From Nemertoderma westbladi (Eukaryota; Animalia; Xenacoelomorpha): a stretch of DNA of 34,752 nt. Below are positions 26,223-34,453 of this stretch, piece by piece. The notes beneath the pieces were generated by a model. That model saw nothing but the letters and a program-made list of their open reading frames with translations. It made no database searches and was not told where the DNA came from. The DNA lies in assembly GCA_032718475.1 (NCBI GenBank), contig JAUCBJ010005200.1, forward strand, positions 1 through 34,752. The letters are read 5' to 3'. The translations under genes were made by a program, and so were the position numbers. The number at the start of each line of letters is the position of its first letter. The stretch's first letter is position 1.

Positions 26223-27372
26223 ATCTCGATTGCTTCAAAGCTATAACAGAATTTGAATCCCATCAGGGATCCTGTTGAGAGACTGTTACGTGGGAACCAA
26301 AATGGTTTCCGTAAATGTCGTGGGAGCTTGGAGCCCATTTTGGTACTTAGTTGAAGAGTTATCAAAAAAGAAAGACAGGCATCTAGCTGTTATCTTTGTT
26401 GACTTCTTCAAGGCCTTTGATTCAGTCTCTCGCTCACGTATGTTCAGCATACTTTCATTATATGGGATTCCTGATGAAATTATAGCAGCAATCAGATCAG
26501 TATACGATGGTTCGACAACATTTGTGACTACTGTTGATGGTAACACAGATCAATTCGACGTCTTATGGGGATTCCTCCAGGGTGACACATTTGCACCGTT
26601 CTTATTCGTAATTGTGGTTGGTTGTGTTCTACGCATGTCCTACCTTAGACCATCTTAATAGAGAAGGGGAGGGGTGATGGTAACACACCCTACTGGCACA
26701 AGAAGTAGAGGAAATACAGCAAAGGACCATACTGCTCTAGACTTTGCTGATGACGTAGGGGTACTGTCCGAATTACTAGAGGGACCCCAAAGGATCCTCT
26801 GCTCATTGGATCAGGTTTATTCTAGTGTTGGTCCTTTTGTACACTCCAAGAAGACTAGAATTATGACAAGGAAAGTTTACAGCCCTCAAGAAATGTCTGA
26901 TCTTCAGGGCATAGTCTGTCCATGGTATGGTCATGGCATGGTATTGTCTGTCCACAAGTTGGAAGTCCCGTAGAATATAACGGAACCTACTTGTATCAAT
27001 AACGATGAACACATCTCCAATCACACTATACAACCTTGGAGGTGTTTCACTGTAGTCTTAACTTGCTTGACACTTGAACGGAACCGCCTCCGCTTTGCAG
27101 GACATTGCTTTCGCCGTGAGGACCAGCCAGTGAATAATCTTGTGCTTTGGCAAGCTCATGGATTGAATTTGAATGGGGACAGCCCATGACTTTCTTTAGA
27201 CGCATCTTAAAGGACACCGGCCTTAAAGATGCGGATGATCTAGCAAATGTAATGGGTGATAGGGAGTTGTGGCGGCGCAATTTTGTCGACAAGCCGGGGC
27301 AGCATTCTCAATATATATGTAATATATATACTGCAGCTGCAATGCAGCATGCCGATAGAATAGCAGTAGTAG
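26223..27372 (+). mobile_element. 5'-truncated, degraded non-LTR retrotransposon (LINE, RTE-like), copy 1: RT fragment, C-terminus and TAG-rich tail
   Basis: RT motifs FVDFFKAFDSV and GFLQGDTFAPFLF (ORF 26275-26658) and LDFADDVG (FADD at 26743-26754); C-terminal RLRFAGHCFRR-coding DNA at ~27084-27116; frameshifts and stops; decayed tail TAGAATAGCAGTAGTAG at 27356-27372; colinear with the minus-strand copy. Only a weak TSD candidate (GTTTTAA 26217-26223 / 27376-27382). Clade assigned from motif recall only. Confidence 0.88.
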
Positions 27373-27868: not shown

Positions 27869-27880
27869 ATGTTAAACAAT
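27869..27880. other. Left target-site duplication of the 411-bp-unit insertion (ATGTTAAACAAT)
   Basis: Identical 12-mer at 27869-27880 and 30245-30256, abutting both ends of element-derived sequence. Confidence 0.85.
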
Positions 27881-27928
27881 TATTATAGGAAGGGATCTAG
27901 GGGTCTTAACCTCGAATGATAAGTTTAT
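27880..27928 (-). repeat. 49-bp inverted fragment of the 411-bp unit at the 5' end of the insertion
   Basis: TTATTATAGGAAGGGATCTAGGGGTCTTAACCTCGAATGATAAGTTTAT is the exact reverse complement of 28082-28130. Confidence 0.95.
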
Positions 27929-27945
27929 CGAAACGCGTACGTGGT
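27928..27945 (+). ncRNA. 3' half of a hammerhead ribozyme (truncated first copy)
   Basis: TCGAAACGCGTACGTGGT is present, but the CTGATGA and stem I 5' arm are replaced by the inverted segment. Confidence 0.8.
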
Positions 27946-28250
27946 TTGGAGGGATATGAGATATTAATTTCAAGAAAAATTACGCGATTCCTAAATTTGT
28001 ACACTACCCGGTTAAAAAGTACGCATTTGATGGGATTAGTCCTACAATTGCGCCAATAAAAGATAAGTTATTTTCGGTAAAATAAACTTATCATTCGAGG
28101 TTAAGACCCCTAGATCCCTTCCTATAATAAATGTATAATAACAAACACCTCGAAGAATACAGCTTGCCAACACATTGTTACTACCAATAATCAAAAATCA
28201 GGGGCTAATAAAATGGCAGCTGGCTTTGAAATTAATACGCCATATCTCAA

Positions 28251-28313
28251 GAACCTGTGGCCTAGTGGTTGTAGTCTCGGCTTCCACCTCGAGGTCCCCG
28301 GTTCGAATCCGAC
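28251..28313 (+). promoter_or_regulatory. tRNA-derived head with internal RNA Pol III promoter, copy 1
   Basis: A box TGGCCTAGTGG at 28258-28268 and B box GGTTCGAATCC at 28300-28310 with tRNA-like spacing; anticodon-like arm CTCGG-CTTCCAC-CTCGAG; no 3' acceptor strand. Confidence 0.88.
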
Positions 28314-28356
28314 ACCACGCTGATGAGACCCAGTAAGGTCGAAACGCGTACGTGGT
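28314..28356 (+). ncRNA. Minimal type I hammerhead ribozyme, copy 1 (predicted cleavage after A28350, GUA triplet)
   Basis: Stem I ACCACG/CGTGGT; core CTGATGA 28320-28326; stem II GACC-cagtaa-GGTC; GAAA 28341-28344; stem III reduced to palindrome ACGCGT 28344-28349; cleavage base A28350. Confidence 0.93.
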
Positions 28357-28661
28357 TTGGAGGGATATGAGATATTAATTTCAAGAAAAATTACGCGATT
28401 CCTAAATTTGTACACTACCCGGTTAAAAAGTACGCATTTGATGGGATTAGTCCTACAATTGCGCCAATAAAAGATAAGTTATTTTCGGTAAAATAAACTT
28501 ATCATTCGAGGTTAAGACCCCTAGATCCCTTCCTATAATAAATGTATAATAACAAACACCTCGAAAAATACAGCTTGCCAACACATTGTTACTACCAATA
28601 ATCAAAAATCAGGGGCTAATAAAATGGCAGCTGGCTTTGAAATTAATACGCCATATCTCAA

Positions 28662-28724
28662 GAACCTGTGGCCTAGTGGTTGTAGTCTCGGCTTCCACCT
28701 CGAGGTCCCCGGTTCGAATCCGAC
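28662..28724 (+). promoter_or_regulatory. tRNA-derived Pol III head, copy 2
   Basis: Identical to 28251-28313, shifted by 411. Confidence 0.88.
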
Positions 28725-28767
28725 ACCACGCTGATGAGACCCAGTAAGGTCGAAACGCGTACGTGGT
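28725..28767 (+). ncRNA. Minimal type I hammerhead ribozyme, copy 2 (cleavage after 28761)
   Basis: ACCACG CTGATGA GACC CAGTAA GGTC GAAA CGCG TA CGTGGT. Confidence 0.93.
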
Positions 28768-29072
28768 TTGGAGGGATATGAGATATTAATTTCAAGAAAA
28801 ATTACGCGATTCCTAAATTTGTACACTACCCGGTTAAAAAGTACGCATTTGATGGGATTAGTCCTACAATTGCGCCAATAAAAGATAAGTTATTTTCGGT
28901 AAAATAAACTTATCATTCGAGGTTAAGACCCCTAGATCCCTTCCTATAATAAATGTATAATAACAAACACCTCGAAAAATACAGCTTGCCAACACATTGT
29001 TACTACCAATAATCAAAAATCAGGGGCTAATAAAATGGCAGCTGGCTTTGAAATTAATACGCCATATCTCAA

Positions 29073-29135
29073 GAACCTGTGGCCTAGTGGTTGTAGTCTC
29101 GGCTTCCACCTCGAGGTCCCCGGTTCGAATCCGAC
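29073..29135 (+). promoter_or_regulatory. tRNA-derived Pol III head, copy 3
   Basis: Identical A and B boxes, shifted by 822. Confidence 0.88.
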
Positions 29136-29178
29136 ACCACGCTGATGAGACCCAGTAAGGTCGAAACGCGTACGTGGT
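29136..29178 (+). ncRNA. Minimal type I hammerhead ribozyme, copy 3 (cleavage after 29172)
   Basis: Same sequence as copy 1. Confidence 0.93.
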
Positions 29179-29483
29179 TTGGAGGGATATGAGATATTAA
29201 TTTCAAGAAAAATTACGCGATTCCTAAATTTGTACACTACCCGGTTAAAAAGTACGCATTTGATGGGATTAGTCCTACAATTGCGCCAATAAAAGATAAG
29301 TTATTTTCGGTAAAATAAACTTATCATTCGAGGTTAAGACCCCTAGATCCCTTCCTATAATAAATGTATAATAACAAACACCTCGAAAAATACAGCTTGC
29401 CAACACATTGTTACTACCAATAATCAAAAATCAGGGGCTAATAAAATGGCAGCTGGCTTTGAAATTAATACGCCATATCTCAA

Positions 29484-29546
29484 GAACCTGTGGCCTTGTG
29501 GTTGTAGTCTCGGCTTCCACCTCGAGGTCCCCGGTTCGAATCCGAC
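29484..29546 (+). promoter_or_regulatory. tRNA-derived Pol III head, copy 4, with an A-box point mutation
   Basis: A box reads TGGCCTTGTGG (A>T at 29497); B box intact. Confidence 0.8.
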
Positions 29547-29589
29547 ACCACGCTGATGAGACCCAGTAAGGTCGAAACGCGTACGTGGT
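29547..29589 (+). ncRNA. Minimal type I hammerhead ribozyme, copy 4 (cleavage after 29583)
   Basis: Same sequence as copy 1. Confidence 0.93.
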
Positions 29590-29894
29590 TTGGAGGGATA
29601 TGAGATATTAATTTCAAGAAAAATTACGCGATTCCTAAATTTGTACACTACCCGGTTAAAAAGTACGCATTTGATGGGATTAGTCCTACAATTGCGCCAA
29701 TAAAAGATAAGTTATTTTCGGTAAAATAAACTTATCATTCGAGGTTAAGACCCCTAGATCCCTTCCTATAATAAATGTATAATAACAAACACCTCGAAAA
29801 ATACAGCTTGCCAACACATTGTTACTACCAATAATCAAAAATCAGGGGCTAATAAAATGGCAGCTGGCTTTGAAATTAATACGCCATATCTCAA

Positions 29895-29957
29895 GAACCT
29901 GTGGCCTAGTGGTTGTAGTCTCGGCTTCCACCTCGAGGTCCCCGGTTCGAATCCGAC
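29895..29957 (+). promoter_or_regulatory. tRNA-derived Pol III head, copy 5
   Basis: Identical A and B boxes, shifted by 1644. Confidence 0.88.
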
Positions 29958-30000
29958 ACCACGCTGATGAGACCCAGTAAGGTCGAAACGCGTACGTGGT
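29958..30000 (+). ncRNA. Minimal type I hammerhead ribozyme, copy 5 (cleavage after 29994)
   Basis: Same sequence as copy 1. Confidence 0.93.
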
Positions 30001-30244
30001 TTGGAGGGATATGAGATATTAATTTCAAGAAAAATTACGCGATTCCTAAATTTGTACACTACCCGGTTAAAAAGTACGCATTTGATGGGATTAGTCCTAC
30101 AATTGCGCCAATAAAAGATAAGTTATTTTCGGTAAAATAAACTTATCATTCGAGGTTAAGACCCCTAGATCCCTTCCTATAATAAATGTATAATAACAAA
30201 CACCTCGAAAAATACAGCTTGCCAACACATTGTTACTACCAATA

Positions 30245-30256
30245 ATGTTAAACAAT
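30245..30256. other. Right target-site duplication of the 411-bp-unit insertion (ATGTTAAACAAT)
   Basis: The unit sequence (...CCAATAAT, normally followed by CAAAAATC) stops at 30246 and runs into the 12-mer also found at 27869-27880, with a 2-nt overlap. Confidence 0.85.
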
Positions 30257-31031: not shown

Positions 31032-32751
31032 CTACTACTACTAGGATCGGCATGCTGCATTGCCGCTGCATTTTTAAGAATGCTGTGCCGGCTTGTCGAC
31101 AAAATTGCGCCGCCACAACTCCCTATCACCCATGACATTTGCTAGATCATCCGCATCTTCAAGGCCTTTAAGATGCGTCCCAAGAAAGTCATGGGCTGTC
31201 TACCATGCTTATTCACTCCATGAGGCTGCCAAAGTACAAGATTATGTACTGGCTGGTCCTCACGGCGAAAGCAATGTCCTGCAAAGCGGAGGCGATTTTG
31301 TTCTAGTGTCAAGCTTGGGGGAACCAATGAGACACCTCCAATGTTATATAGTGCCTGGATGGAGATGTGTGCATTGTACTTGACACAATGAACCCGGCGT
31401 AGCATTCTTGTGAATGTGCCATCCAGAGATTTGGTGTCCTCAGCAGTTAGAGCCCAGCATGGACTCCCATAGAGGAGTACTGGAACTACTGCTGCTCTAA
31501 ATAATCGGACCTTAAGTTTCCGAATAATTCTCGGTGACTTCCAAATCCTGGAAAGCCTATTCAAGGTTGCCCATGCCTTTCCCTTACGTATTCGAAGGTC
31601 CTCACCTGACTTCCGGATCCATGATCCCAGGTAACAGAAGTCGTCCACATGCTCAAGCATACCATCCTTTTAGCTTATGCTCATCCGATCAGAGACTTGC
31701 TGAGGACTTTCAAAGTTAACTGTCAAAATTTTGGTCTTTCTGGCGTTAATAAAAAGACCAACACTAGAAGCAGCATGTTCTAATTAACTGAGGAGCCGTT
31801 GGGTTTCCTCTAGTGATTCTGAGAGTACTCCTAAGTCTTCAGCAAAGTCTAGTTCAGTTAGGTACTTGGCAGGATTTCCTCGACTTCTGGAGCCAGTAGG
31901 TGGAGGACAATTATGAACAAGAATGGTGCAAGTGTGTCTCCATGGAGGACGCCCCATAACACTTCAAATGGTTCTGTGTCACCATCAACAGTAGACACAA
32001 ATGTTGTCGAACCATCGTATACTGATCTGATTGCTGCAATAATTTCATCAGGAATCCCATATAATGAAAGTATGCTGAACATACGTGAGCGGGAGACTGA
32101 ATCAAAGGCCTTGAAGAAGTCAACAAAGATAACAGCCAGATGCATGTCTTTCTTTTTTGATAACTCTTCAATTATCCTTCTAAGTGCCAAAATGGGCTCC
32201 ATGGTCCCACGACCTTTACGGAACCCATTCTGATTTCCACGGAGCAGTCTCTCAATGGGATCCCTGATGCGATTTAATATAATTCTATTGTATAGCTTTG
32301 CAGCAATCGAGATCAATGAGATTCCCCGAAAAGAACCATAGAGTGTTAGGTTGCCCTTCTTGGGAACTGGCACCAACTTATTTGTTTTAATTTCTTGTGG
32401 GACTCTTGTTGTTCGGTACATGTCTACTATGATAGGATTGAGCGATGAGATATGATGGGCTTTAAACACTCAGGTATTTTAAAGACCTCAGGGGGAACAC
32501 CATCTTCTCCACTGGCACGATTGGTCTTAATGCTCTTTGCAGCAACCTTCACTTCTGCAAAGGAGATATCGCCAATGGGAATATCTGGGAGTACAGACTC
32601 AGACACTTTTACTTCTATAAAGTTATCAGCAATACCCTGTCATTATTGAGGAGCTTTTCAAAGTGGGCCTTCCAACCATTGAGGCGATCGGCTGGTGATT
32701 CAGCCTTAACCTTGGTGGTTGGTTGGCTTTTCCGCCCAGTAAGAATATATA
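31032..32751 (-). mobile_element. 5'-truncated non-LTR retrotransposon (LINE, RTE-like), copy 2, with (TAG)4 tail and 10-bp TSD
   Basis: Tail (CTA)4 on + at 31032-31043; TACTATAGAA duplicated at 31022-31031 and 32752-32761; RT-coding fragments in between. Confidence 0.92.
31142..32745 (-). pseudogene. Fragmented ORF2 reverse transcriptase of LINE copy 2
   Basis: LVPVPKKGNL-FRGISLISIAAKLY-NQNGFRKGRGT-FVDFFKAFDSV-GVLHGDTLAPFLF (ORF 31858-32469); catalytic motif degraded to DFAED (31835-31849); VDDFCYLGSW, LLYGSPCWAL and RLRFAGHCFRR (ORF 31142-31660); several frameshifts and a deletion near 31903; no endonuclease domain retained. Confidence 0.9.
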
Positions 32752-33313: not shown

Positions 33314-34453
33314 TGTTCGTGTTTCAGTGGATCCTTCGTGTCGCCTCCGGGTTCGTGTTTCAGTGGATCCTTCGTGTCGCCTCCGGTGTTCGTGTTTCAG
33401 TGGATCCTTCGTGTCGCCTCCGGTGTTCGTGTTTCAGTGGATCCTTCGGTCGCCTCCGGTTCGTGTTTCAGTGGATCCCTTGGGTCGCCTCCGGTGTTCG
33501 TGTTTCAGTGGATCCCTTGGGTCGCCTCCGGTGTTCGTGTTTCAGTGGATCCCTTCGGGTCGCCTCCGGTGTTCGTATTTCAGTGGATCCCTTGGGTCGC
33601 CTCTGGTGTTCGTGTTTCAGTGGATCCCTCGGTTCGCCTCCGGTGTTCGTGTTTCAGTGGATCCTTCGGGTCGCCTCCGGTGTTCGTGTTTCAGTGGATC
33701 CCTTGGGTCGCCTCCGGTGTTCGTGTTTCAGTGGATCCTTCGGGTCGCCTCTGGTGTTCGTGTTTCAGTGGATCCCTTCGGGTCGCCTCCGGTGTTCGTG
33801 TTTCAGTGGATCCCTTGGGTCGCCTCCGGTGTTCGTGTTTCAGTGGATCCTTCGGGTCGCCTCCTGGTGTTCGTGTTTCAGTGGATCCTTCGGGTCGCCT
33901 CCGGTGTTCGTGTTTCAGTGGATCCCTTGGGTCGCCTCCGGTGTTCGTGTTTCAGTGGATCCTTCGGGTCGCCTCCGGTGTTCGTGTTTCAGTGGATCCC
34001 TTGGGTCGCCTCCGGTGTTCGTGTTTCAGTGGATCCCTTCGGGTCGCCTCCGGTGTTCGTGTTTCAGTGGATCCTTCGGGTCGCCTCCGGTGTTCGTGTT
34101 TCAGTGGATCCCTTCGGGTCGCCTCCGGTGTTCGTGTTTCAGTGGATCCTTCGGGTCGCCTCTGGTGTTCGTGTTTCAGTGGATCCCTTGGGTCGCCTCC
34201 GGTGTTCGTGTTTCAGTGGATCCCTTGGGTCGCCTCCGGTGTTCGTGTTTCAGTGGATCCTTCGGGTCGCCTCCTGGTGTTCGTGTTTCAGTGGATCCCT
34301 TCGGGTCGCCTCCGGTGTTCGTGTTTCAGTGGATCCTTCGGGTCGCCTCCGGTGTTCGTGTTTCAGTGGATCCCTTCGGGTCGCCTCCGGTGTTCGTGTT
34401 TCAGTGGATCCCTTGGGTCGCCTCCGGTGTTCGTGTTTCAGTGGATCCTTCGT
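33314..34453. repeat. 37-bp GC-rich minisatellite, ~31 copies: GTTCGTGTTTCAGTGGATCC(TTCG/CTTG/CTTCG)GGTCGCCTCCGGT
   Basis: Period 37 (e.g. 33388 to 33425) with 35-38 bp variants; one GGATCC per unit; sharp borders with AT-rich flanks. Confidence 0.97.

Follow-up and report, generated by a model that had tools for sequence, protein, structure and literature searches.

Within a 34,752-nt stretch of Nemertoderma westbladi DNA (contig JAUCBJ010005200.1; "the window" below means this whole stretch), we uncovered a tandem array of a hammerhead retroelement in which a long-range stem encloses a tRNA-like Pol III promoter head and the adjacent type-I hammerhead ribozyme. The complementarity is real and unlikely to have arisen by chance. 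Under our preferred reading, to which we give roughly even chances, the stem is a helix in the plus-strand RNA of a tRNA-headed hammerhead retroelement and is predicted to serve as a coaxial outer extension of helix I of the ribozyme. The element itself follows the Sm-alpha-like, animal non-LTR retrozyme design and so adds one more family to an established type. The features on which the argument rests are collected in Table 1.

Table 1. Features of the element and of its insertion, in window coordinates (X7, a sequencing run with a diverged relative of the unit)
Feature	Position	Strand	Evidence or remark
5′ arm, 12-bp outer helix	28226..28237	+	exact reverse complement of 28373-28384; mean pair probability 0.97
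5′ arm, 6-bp inner helix	28241..28246	+	pair probability 1.00; same letters in the diverged X7 relative
3′ arm, 6-bp inner helix	28364..28369	+	13 nt past the cleavage site; same letters in X7
3′ arm, 12-bp outer helix	28373..28384	+	complementarity and predicted fold
Type-I hammerhead	28308..28362	+	core read directly; Rfam Hammerhead_HH9
Helix I	28308-28319 with 28351-28362	+	11 bp, one bulge; CCACG at 28315 with CGUGG at 28351
Core CUGAUGA	28320-28326	+	CTGATGAG at 28320
Helix II	28327-28340	+	4 bp, folds
GAAA	28341-28344	+	CGAAAC at 28340
Helix III, palindrome ACGCGU	28344-28349	+	pairs in trans in the cofold
Predicted cut GUA/C	28348-28351	+	between 28350 and 28351
tRNA-like head	28251..28304	+	predicted imperfect hairpin branching from a three-way junction
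A box	28258-28268	+	perfect match to the consensus TRGCNNAGTGG
B box	28300-28310	+	perfect match to the consensus GGTTCGANTCC
T4 run	28482..28485	+	the unit's + strand has no other T4; candidate weak terminator for Pol III
Direct array, 5.64 units of 411 nt	27929..30246	+	begins at monomer position 400, finishes at 252
Inverted 5′-truncated unit fragment	27881..27928	-	abuts the array 5′ end; BLAST monomer 143-199 vs 27928-27872
Left TSD copy, 12 bp	27869..27880	+	same 12-mer as 30245-30256
Right TSD copy	30245..30256	+	first 2 nt overlap the array end
Canonical 3′ ends of genomic copies	28594..28602	+	28602 = monomer 252; A/T-rich tract, predicted hairpin tip

A predicted helix of the plus-strand RNA

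The stem is built of two helices, an outer one of 12 bp and an inner one of 6 bp (CATATC with GATATG), each formed by exact reverse complements and separated from the other by a 3x3 internal loop, as an earlier note on this DNA had described; in the loop CGC faces AGA. Its arms are identical across the units of the array, and the window holds five copies of the 5′ arm and six of the 3′ arm. Such a stem is rare: upon dinucleotide-preserving shuffling of the monomer the longest perfect Watson-Crick stem usually measured 7-9 bp, with a mode of 8 bp, and reached 12 bp in one of 300 shuffles, a statistic that leaves the adjoining 6-bp helix uncounted. An intermolecular duplex of the whole monomer with itself was discarded as a helix statistic, since it pairs the molecules over their full length and all 200 shuffles scored better. 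For the linear monomer (28351-28761) the MFE fold (-102.4 kcal/mol, z -2.85, one of 100 shuffles equally stable) includes the stem, as does that of the circular monomer (-97.1 kcal/mol, z -2.95), which only one of 200 shuffles equaled in the comparison that the earlier note had proposed as a check; the stem is also present in the centroid folds. In the linear monomer, the circular monomer and the local piece 28220-28390 alike, the pairs of the 12-bp helix have a mean probability of 0.97 and those of the 6-bp helix one of 1.00. The duplex of the two arms has an energy of -17.1 kcal/mol, and the unpairing of an arm, when forced, costs 16-17 kcal/mol. By comparison, the complementary strand of the circular monomer is ordinary in this respect (z -1.19; 21 of 200 shuffles equally stable). 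Thus, the rarity among shuffles, the energy of the arms, the presence in both MFE and centroid folds and the plus-strand z-score together confirm the stem, predicted to be strong in the plus-strand RNA, and show that composition does not account for it. In the predicted fold of the cleaved monomer, positions 14-34 pair with 287-307, which is the very pairing of 28364-28384 with 28637-28657 that had been put forward for it.

Ribozyme, promoter head and transcription

The unit was initially described as a tRNA-headed hammerhead repeat, and it does combine A and B boxes with a hammerhead core. The core, which starts nine bases after the B box, has the conserved CUGAUGA ... GAAA together with the U-H cleavage dinucleotide. 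The Rfam model Hammerhead_HH9 matches all five full ribozymes with 26.2 bits (E 0.0047; E 0.0002 in a one-unit search), which is short of its gathering score of 52, with a five-column gap in helix III; the low score stems from helix III being almost absent. Helices I and II fold; helix III in cis is reduced to 2 bp around a 2-nt loop, and in trans it has 6 bp. Unable to close on itself, the ACGCGU palindrome pairs two ribozyme domains in the cofold with a gain of 8.3 kcal/mol. Since helix III is just this 6-nt palindrome, we propose that the ribozymes probably cut at GUA/C as paired ribozymes.

Type-2 Pol III promoters have an A box of the form TRGCNNAGTGG and a B box of the form GGTTCGANTCC. 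The pattern AGTGG, a spacer of 25-45 nt and GGTTCGANTCC occurs four times, in each case inside an array unit, and is absent from all of 100 shuffles; the A box of one array unit has a point change. In the head ARAGORN reports no tRNA gene and Rfam returns no tRNA match at E values up to 10, and the tRNA-like stretch is predicted to fold as a hairpin with the loop CUUCCAC, not as a cloverleaf. The "tRNA head" is a promoter relic only.

The 5′ arms of the stem (28226-28246) are situated 12-32 nt upstream of the A box, in line with the earlier claim that they precede the predicted Pol III start. As the 12-bp arm lies 21-32 nt upstream of that box, a transcript initiated at the putative start site of the unit's own Pol III promoter would be without at least the 12-bp 5′ arm. 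A further element bearing on transcription, which the earlier reading of the element left out of account, is the single T4 run that each unit contains. Pol III transcripts may terminate there without reaching the second ribozyme, in which case multimers would need read-through or another polymerase. The run is located in the 5′ strand of a strong 13-bp hairpin in the unit body (28468-28510), and a non-significant Rfam miRNA-precursor match to this segment (E 1.1) merely reflects the hairpin.

The stem as a predicted extension of helix I

The predicted fold has a three-way junction at which the stem and helix I meet the tRNA-like hairpin. Its 3′ strand is gap-free, with helix I (28351-28362) running straight into the stem (28363-28385), and the tRNA-like hairpin (28251-28304) branches off on the other strand, between the stem and helix I. 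Helix I and the stem together constitute an interrupted helix of ~30 bp, by which nucleotides 1-35 of the cleaved monomer are tied to nucleotides 286-379. The stem is, hence, predicted to be a coaxial outer extension of helix I rather than a separate clamp. This bears on the proposal in the earlier note that the stem joins the ends of the cleaved monomer, which turned out to be overstated: helix I persists in the fold when the stem is forbidden, so that in the prediction it is helix I, not the stem, that juxtaposes the ends. A weaker form of the proposal, wherein the stem reinforces helix I and thereby helps to hold the ends to each other, is plausible. Formation of the stem in multimers, cleaved monomers and circles, which had likewise been suggested, is possible, with pair probabilities of 0.97-1.00.

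Within a multimer, the tRNA-like part and the ribozyme are enclosed by the stem in a local domain of 159 nt. This observation favors an explanation in which the stem is functional and has a main role other than end-joining, be it the insulation of the ribozyme domain (thereby maintaining the register of helix I in multimers), the marking of the template for the reverse transcriptase, or the provision of a double-stranded target for small-RNA silencing. The predicted pairing of two domains via ACGCGU with its 8.3 kcal/mol also speaks for such a role and fits the paired amphibian ribozymes described in PMC7229834. We consider it unlikely that one of these is the main role of the stem; the ends of genomic copies that bear on it are taken up below. 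Our preferred reading remains that of a helix which extends and reinforces helix I.

A TSD-flanked multimeric insertion

The array, whose units differ from one another at 0-1 positions and have a GC fraction of 0.40, is a retrotransposed, TSD-flanked multimeric insertion. Of ~4,670 random pairs of 56-nt flank windows, none shared 12 or more letters. At the inversion junction, 7 of 9 letters of the left TSD copy agree with the unit, and the inverted piece measures 48-57 nt; this resemblance is what microhomology-primed second-strand synthesis would give.

To see how other copies end, we turned to contigs of public sequencing runs (X1, X3, X4, X5 and X7) that were placed on the unit. In X1 and X3, 14-18 contigs per run end at 28602 or at its equivalent 28191 and continue into unrelated sequence (agreement 0.41-0.46), and a second contig stop is seen at 28594 (monomer 244), the tract 28594-28602 being equivalent to 28183-28191. 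The 3′ end of the window array, monomer position 252, is the same as that of these genomic copies. A TSD-flanked copy that spans over five units and has its 3′ end at an internal position common to many genomic copies fits a multimeric or circular RNA template. The tract 28594-28602, which is A/U-rich and at a predicted hairpin tip, has the look of a constant site inside the unit from which reverse transcription begins. At the neighboring position 28192, A replaces C in ~66% of the depth, and there is apparently a subfamily with a longer A run near this site.

We also considered a classical tRNA-derived SINE, which would begin at its tRNA head, terminate in a poly(A) or simple-repeat tail and be scattered as single copies, and rejected it: the cDNA end is at monomer 252 in an A/T-rich tract and the insertion is a 5.6-unit multimer. 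Moreover, unlike in a classical SINE, the 59 nt between the cDNA end and the head are kept in every unit.

A different set of ends coincides with the stem itself. Five contigs from X1 and one from X5, all diverged copies, begin at 28386, which is the base of the stem's 3′ arm and the first base of an A5 run; these starts could be due to stalling of the reverse transcriptase at the helix or to a subfamily breakpoint. For a main role other than end-joining, the five X1 starts are a weak point in favor, being what a stalled reverse transcriptase would leave at a site that also has the A5 run, and the canonical cDNA start at monomer 252 falls 35 nt 5′ of the stem's 5′ arm. Against giving these ends more weight, they are the best-supported ends listed and hence provide no enrichment statistic.

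The reverse-transcriptase remnants within the window are all LINE-type and flank the array on both sides. One decayed fragment at 31858-32469 on the minus strand matches RVT_1 with E 3e-18 and has LINE-1 ORF2p and R2 as its best solved relatives; a second at 26257-26658 on the plus strand matches RVT_1 with E 2e-6, which is under the cut-off. Neither fragment has any sequence in common with the 411-nt unit. The window further contains two satellites, namely a 25-kb one at 69-25086, with a 21-bp unit in ~1,190 copies (also a 104-bp period) and a recurring 16-bp variant block, and one at 33314-34452, with a 37-bp unit in ~31 copies that is GC-rich and has a strong T-over-A skew.

The mode of insertion also bears on whether the arms might be a feature of the DNA, either as terminal inverted repeats bounding a small DNA transposon, or as a cruciform or recombination site in a satellite. 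Formally, they do amount to a 21-nt imperfect inverted repeat around a 117-bp core. However, no direct repeat stands beside the arms (the flanks are GGCT and GAAA), the unit in whose interior the arms lie came in by retrotransposition as a multimer with flanking TSDs, and among the contig pieces listed no copy is bounded exactly by the two arms, all of which renders a DNA-level origin of the stem very improbable.

Variation within the family and in a diverged relative

The unit family is very abundant in one organism, with 3,840 contigs aligned in X1 and 1,510 in X3. Thirteen sites are variable (at least 1% in X1 or X3), and none falls in the 36 arm positions as against 1.1 expected, an absence that says little because there is hardly any variation anywhere in the unit. 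Seven of these sites are unpaired and six paired, with four of the six paired-site changes breaking the pair; thus, they show no bias towards unpaired positions. Among the variants of this near invariant family no compensatory change was seen in the stem. A broader count, in which none of the 35 variable places listed lies in the arms versus 3.1 expected (nominal P ~0.04), was rejected as evidence, since it mixes runs and omits the arm differences of X7, which are outside the aligned part. The window array represents a minority subfamily that differs from the majority at 28184 (= 28595), 28239 (the middle of the internal loop), 28299, 28363 and 28438. At 28363 the family majority has A and not G, whereby the G-U flanking the inner helix becomes A-U, a one-sided change that keeps the pair.

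More divergence is offered by three contigs of a relative from X7, a sediment metagenome. Relative to the window, this sequence has 3 differences in the 80 nt of the ribozyme stretch (28294-28373) and ~10 in the tRNA-like 28259-28293, with both arms of the inner 6-bp helix unchanged. In a hand alignment, one contig has 2 and another 5 differences from the window among the 12 positions of the outer 5′ arm, the changes falling at 28226, 28227, 28232, 28234 and 28237, a comparison that concerns the 5′ arm alone as the 3′ partner falls in an unaligned 162-nt part of the contig. Judging from these sequences, the inner helix behaves like the ribozyme in X7, whereas conservation of sequence does not extend to the outer 5′ arm. 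The X7 relative also keeps, with 4 differences, a 37-nt patch of the unit body (28117-28153), the next 162 nt up to the ribozyme stretch being unaligned; the RNA may thus have another region under constraint in this patch.

These patterns are most pertinent to the possibility that the inverted repeat arose by historical accident in a single master copy, perhaps as a remnant of the acquisition of the tRNA and ribozyme module, and that a young and homogeneous family then copied it thousands of times without any selected role. Such an accident could account for a family so near to invariant (3,194 of the 3,840 X1 contigs are at least 95% alike to the unit stretch), for variable sites without a structural bias and for an outer 5′ arm whose sequence is not conserved in X7; furthermore, 28386 is the first base of several contigs and others break off near 28383, just outside the 3′ arm, which hints at a module boundary. 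It would, however, have to produce 12 perfect pairs of the kind seen in one of 300 shuffles, even before the adjoining 6 bp and the gap-free run into helix I are counted, and to explain why the unusual stability is found in the plus strand and not in the minus strand and why X7 keeps the inner helix on both sides despite the divergence around its 5′ arm. We therefore regard the accident as doubtful, while granting it serious weight, and retain the extension of helix I as the preferred reading of the stem.

Searches beyond the family recovered no further members. A degenerate pattern of B box plus hammerhead yielded four loci in metagenome contigs, none matching the unit by BLAST, and these were set aside as chance-looking matches, two of them at bacterial-type tRNA genes; the same pattern had no loci in viral contigs, and a pattern of helix I plus core had none in either genome or viral contigs. 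None of the runs listed as carrying the unit is recorded as RNA. The single X4 contig, of 441 nt, has a self-overlap (411 + 30) that a tandem and a circle would explain equally well, in RNA or DNA alike.

A proposed cycle and its implications

Based on the preferred reading, we propose the following cycle for the element. The units would be transcribed as multimers, either through Pol III read-through of the T4 run or through read-through from outside. The stem would close each domain of tRNA-like part and ribozyme into a three-way junction co-transcriptionally, whereupon the ribozymes would cut at GUA/C, probably in pairs. In the excised 411-nt monomer, helix I and the stem would then keep the ends, one with a 5′-OH and the other with a 2′,3′-cyclic phosphate, docked, and a tRNA-type ligase could close these docked ends into a circle. 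Finally, a borrowed reverse transcriptase would copy the circle or the multimer, starting in the A/U-rich loop at monomer 252.

A more far-reaching and quite improbable reading is that the three-way junction is purpose-built. It would act as a Pol III promoter when in DNA, and when in RNA as a pre-tRNA mimic that hands the ribozyme-cut ends to the tRNA-splicing ligase, with this module being common to a wider, undescribed class of tRNA-headed animal tandem retroelements, some of which would be ribozyme-less.

The polymerase that transcribes animal retrozymes and the way in which cut ends are presented for circularization are still unsettled. An abundant retrozyme-type family with a built-in Pol III promoter would be a handy system for arm-swap tests of cleavage and ligation, and its strong helix is formable only in multimeric, cleaved or circular RNA. 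Likewise, the TSD-flanked 5.6-unit insertion and the reused internal cDNA start furnish a clean example of the copying of a multimeric or circular template. The element leaves the known picture unchanged and extends the schistosome design to another animal.

Comparison with known systems

The closest parallel in overall design is seen in the hammerhead retroposons Sm-alpha and Sj-alpha of Schistosoma, which were reportedly described by Ferbeyre et al. in 1998. They are presented as SINE-like elements with a tRNA-derived Pol III promoter and a type-I hammerhead (PMC6765202, PMC2770079), Sm-alpha being reported to derive from tRNA-Gln-TTG (PMC2770079). As in these elements, A and B boxes are found directly upstream of the hammerhead in each tandem unit, a likeness that pertains to their design as described. 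Unlike Sm-alpha, the head here has a CUUCCAC loop and no tRNA score, and helix III is just a 6-nt palindrome. The Pol III promoter of the schistosome elements is said to be at the 3′ end of the cleaved monomer, such that propagation takes a minimum of two units in tandem (PMC6765202). A closing stem around the head and the ribozyme finds no mention in the descriptions of Sm-alpha (PMC6765202, PMC2770079) or of retrozymes (PMC7229834) that we drew upon.

The animal non-LTR retrozymes (Cervera and de la Pena 2020) are described as having units of 170-400 nt and a TSD of >4 bp, with circRNAs that are highly self-paired and ligated by RtcB, not by the ribozyme (PMC7229834). The present element resembles them, as so described, in its tandem units with one type-I hammerhead each, its GC below 50% (0.40), its TSD (12 bp), the absence of LTR, PBS or PPT from the unit and a predicted circle that is highly self-paired while leaving the ribozyme free to fold. 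It differs from them in that its unit of 411 nt is just above the range given and in that the circular RNA, shown for those families, is predicted here. A further difference is its internal tRNA-type Pol III promoter, a feature not described for the animal non-LTR retrozyme families in PMC7229834; in the text of that paper "Pol III" has no occurrences, and "tRNA" appears only for tRNA processing and tRNA ligases, with no tRNA-like head. The model offered for retrozymes involves read-through transcription, with a multimeric or circular template being proposed (PMC7761336).

With respect to the ribozyme, the satellite hammerheads of newt and axolotl are described as acting as dimers (PMC7229834, PMC7761336), and their transcripts are attributed to Pol II (PMC6765202). 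Like those ribozymes, the hammerhead here has a helix III too weak for a single ribozyme, and its two-ribozyme form is predicted. Unlike the element here, the amphibian satellites, in the accounts cited, are Pol II-attributed and without a tRNA-like head.

In the structure of its insertion, the array recalls the Penelope-like elements, for which head-to-tail partial tandems with an inverted 5′-truncated copy at the 5′ end have been described (Craig et al. 2021, PMC8557442). Here too a partial tandem has an inverted 5′ copy directly at its 5′ end, going by the arrangement as given for those insertions. Unlike in the Penelope-like elements, there is no Penelope reverse transcriptase in the window, and the nearby fragments are LINE-type. 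L1-type twin priming also yields a 5′ inversion with a TSD.

Finally, in hammerhead viroids and plant LTR retrozymes the ends of the cut monomer are held in a paired region and closed by tRNA ligase (PMC7761336). The ribozyme-cut monomer ends of the present element are predicted to be in a paired region likewise, to the extent that those systems are described there. However, while viroids and plant LTR retrozymes usually mask the ribozyme in their stable fold, the stable fold here has the active helices I and II.
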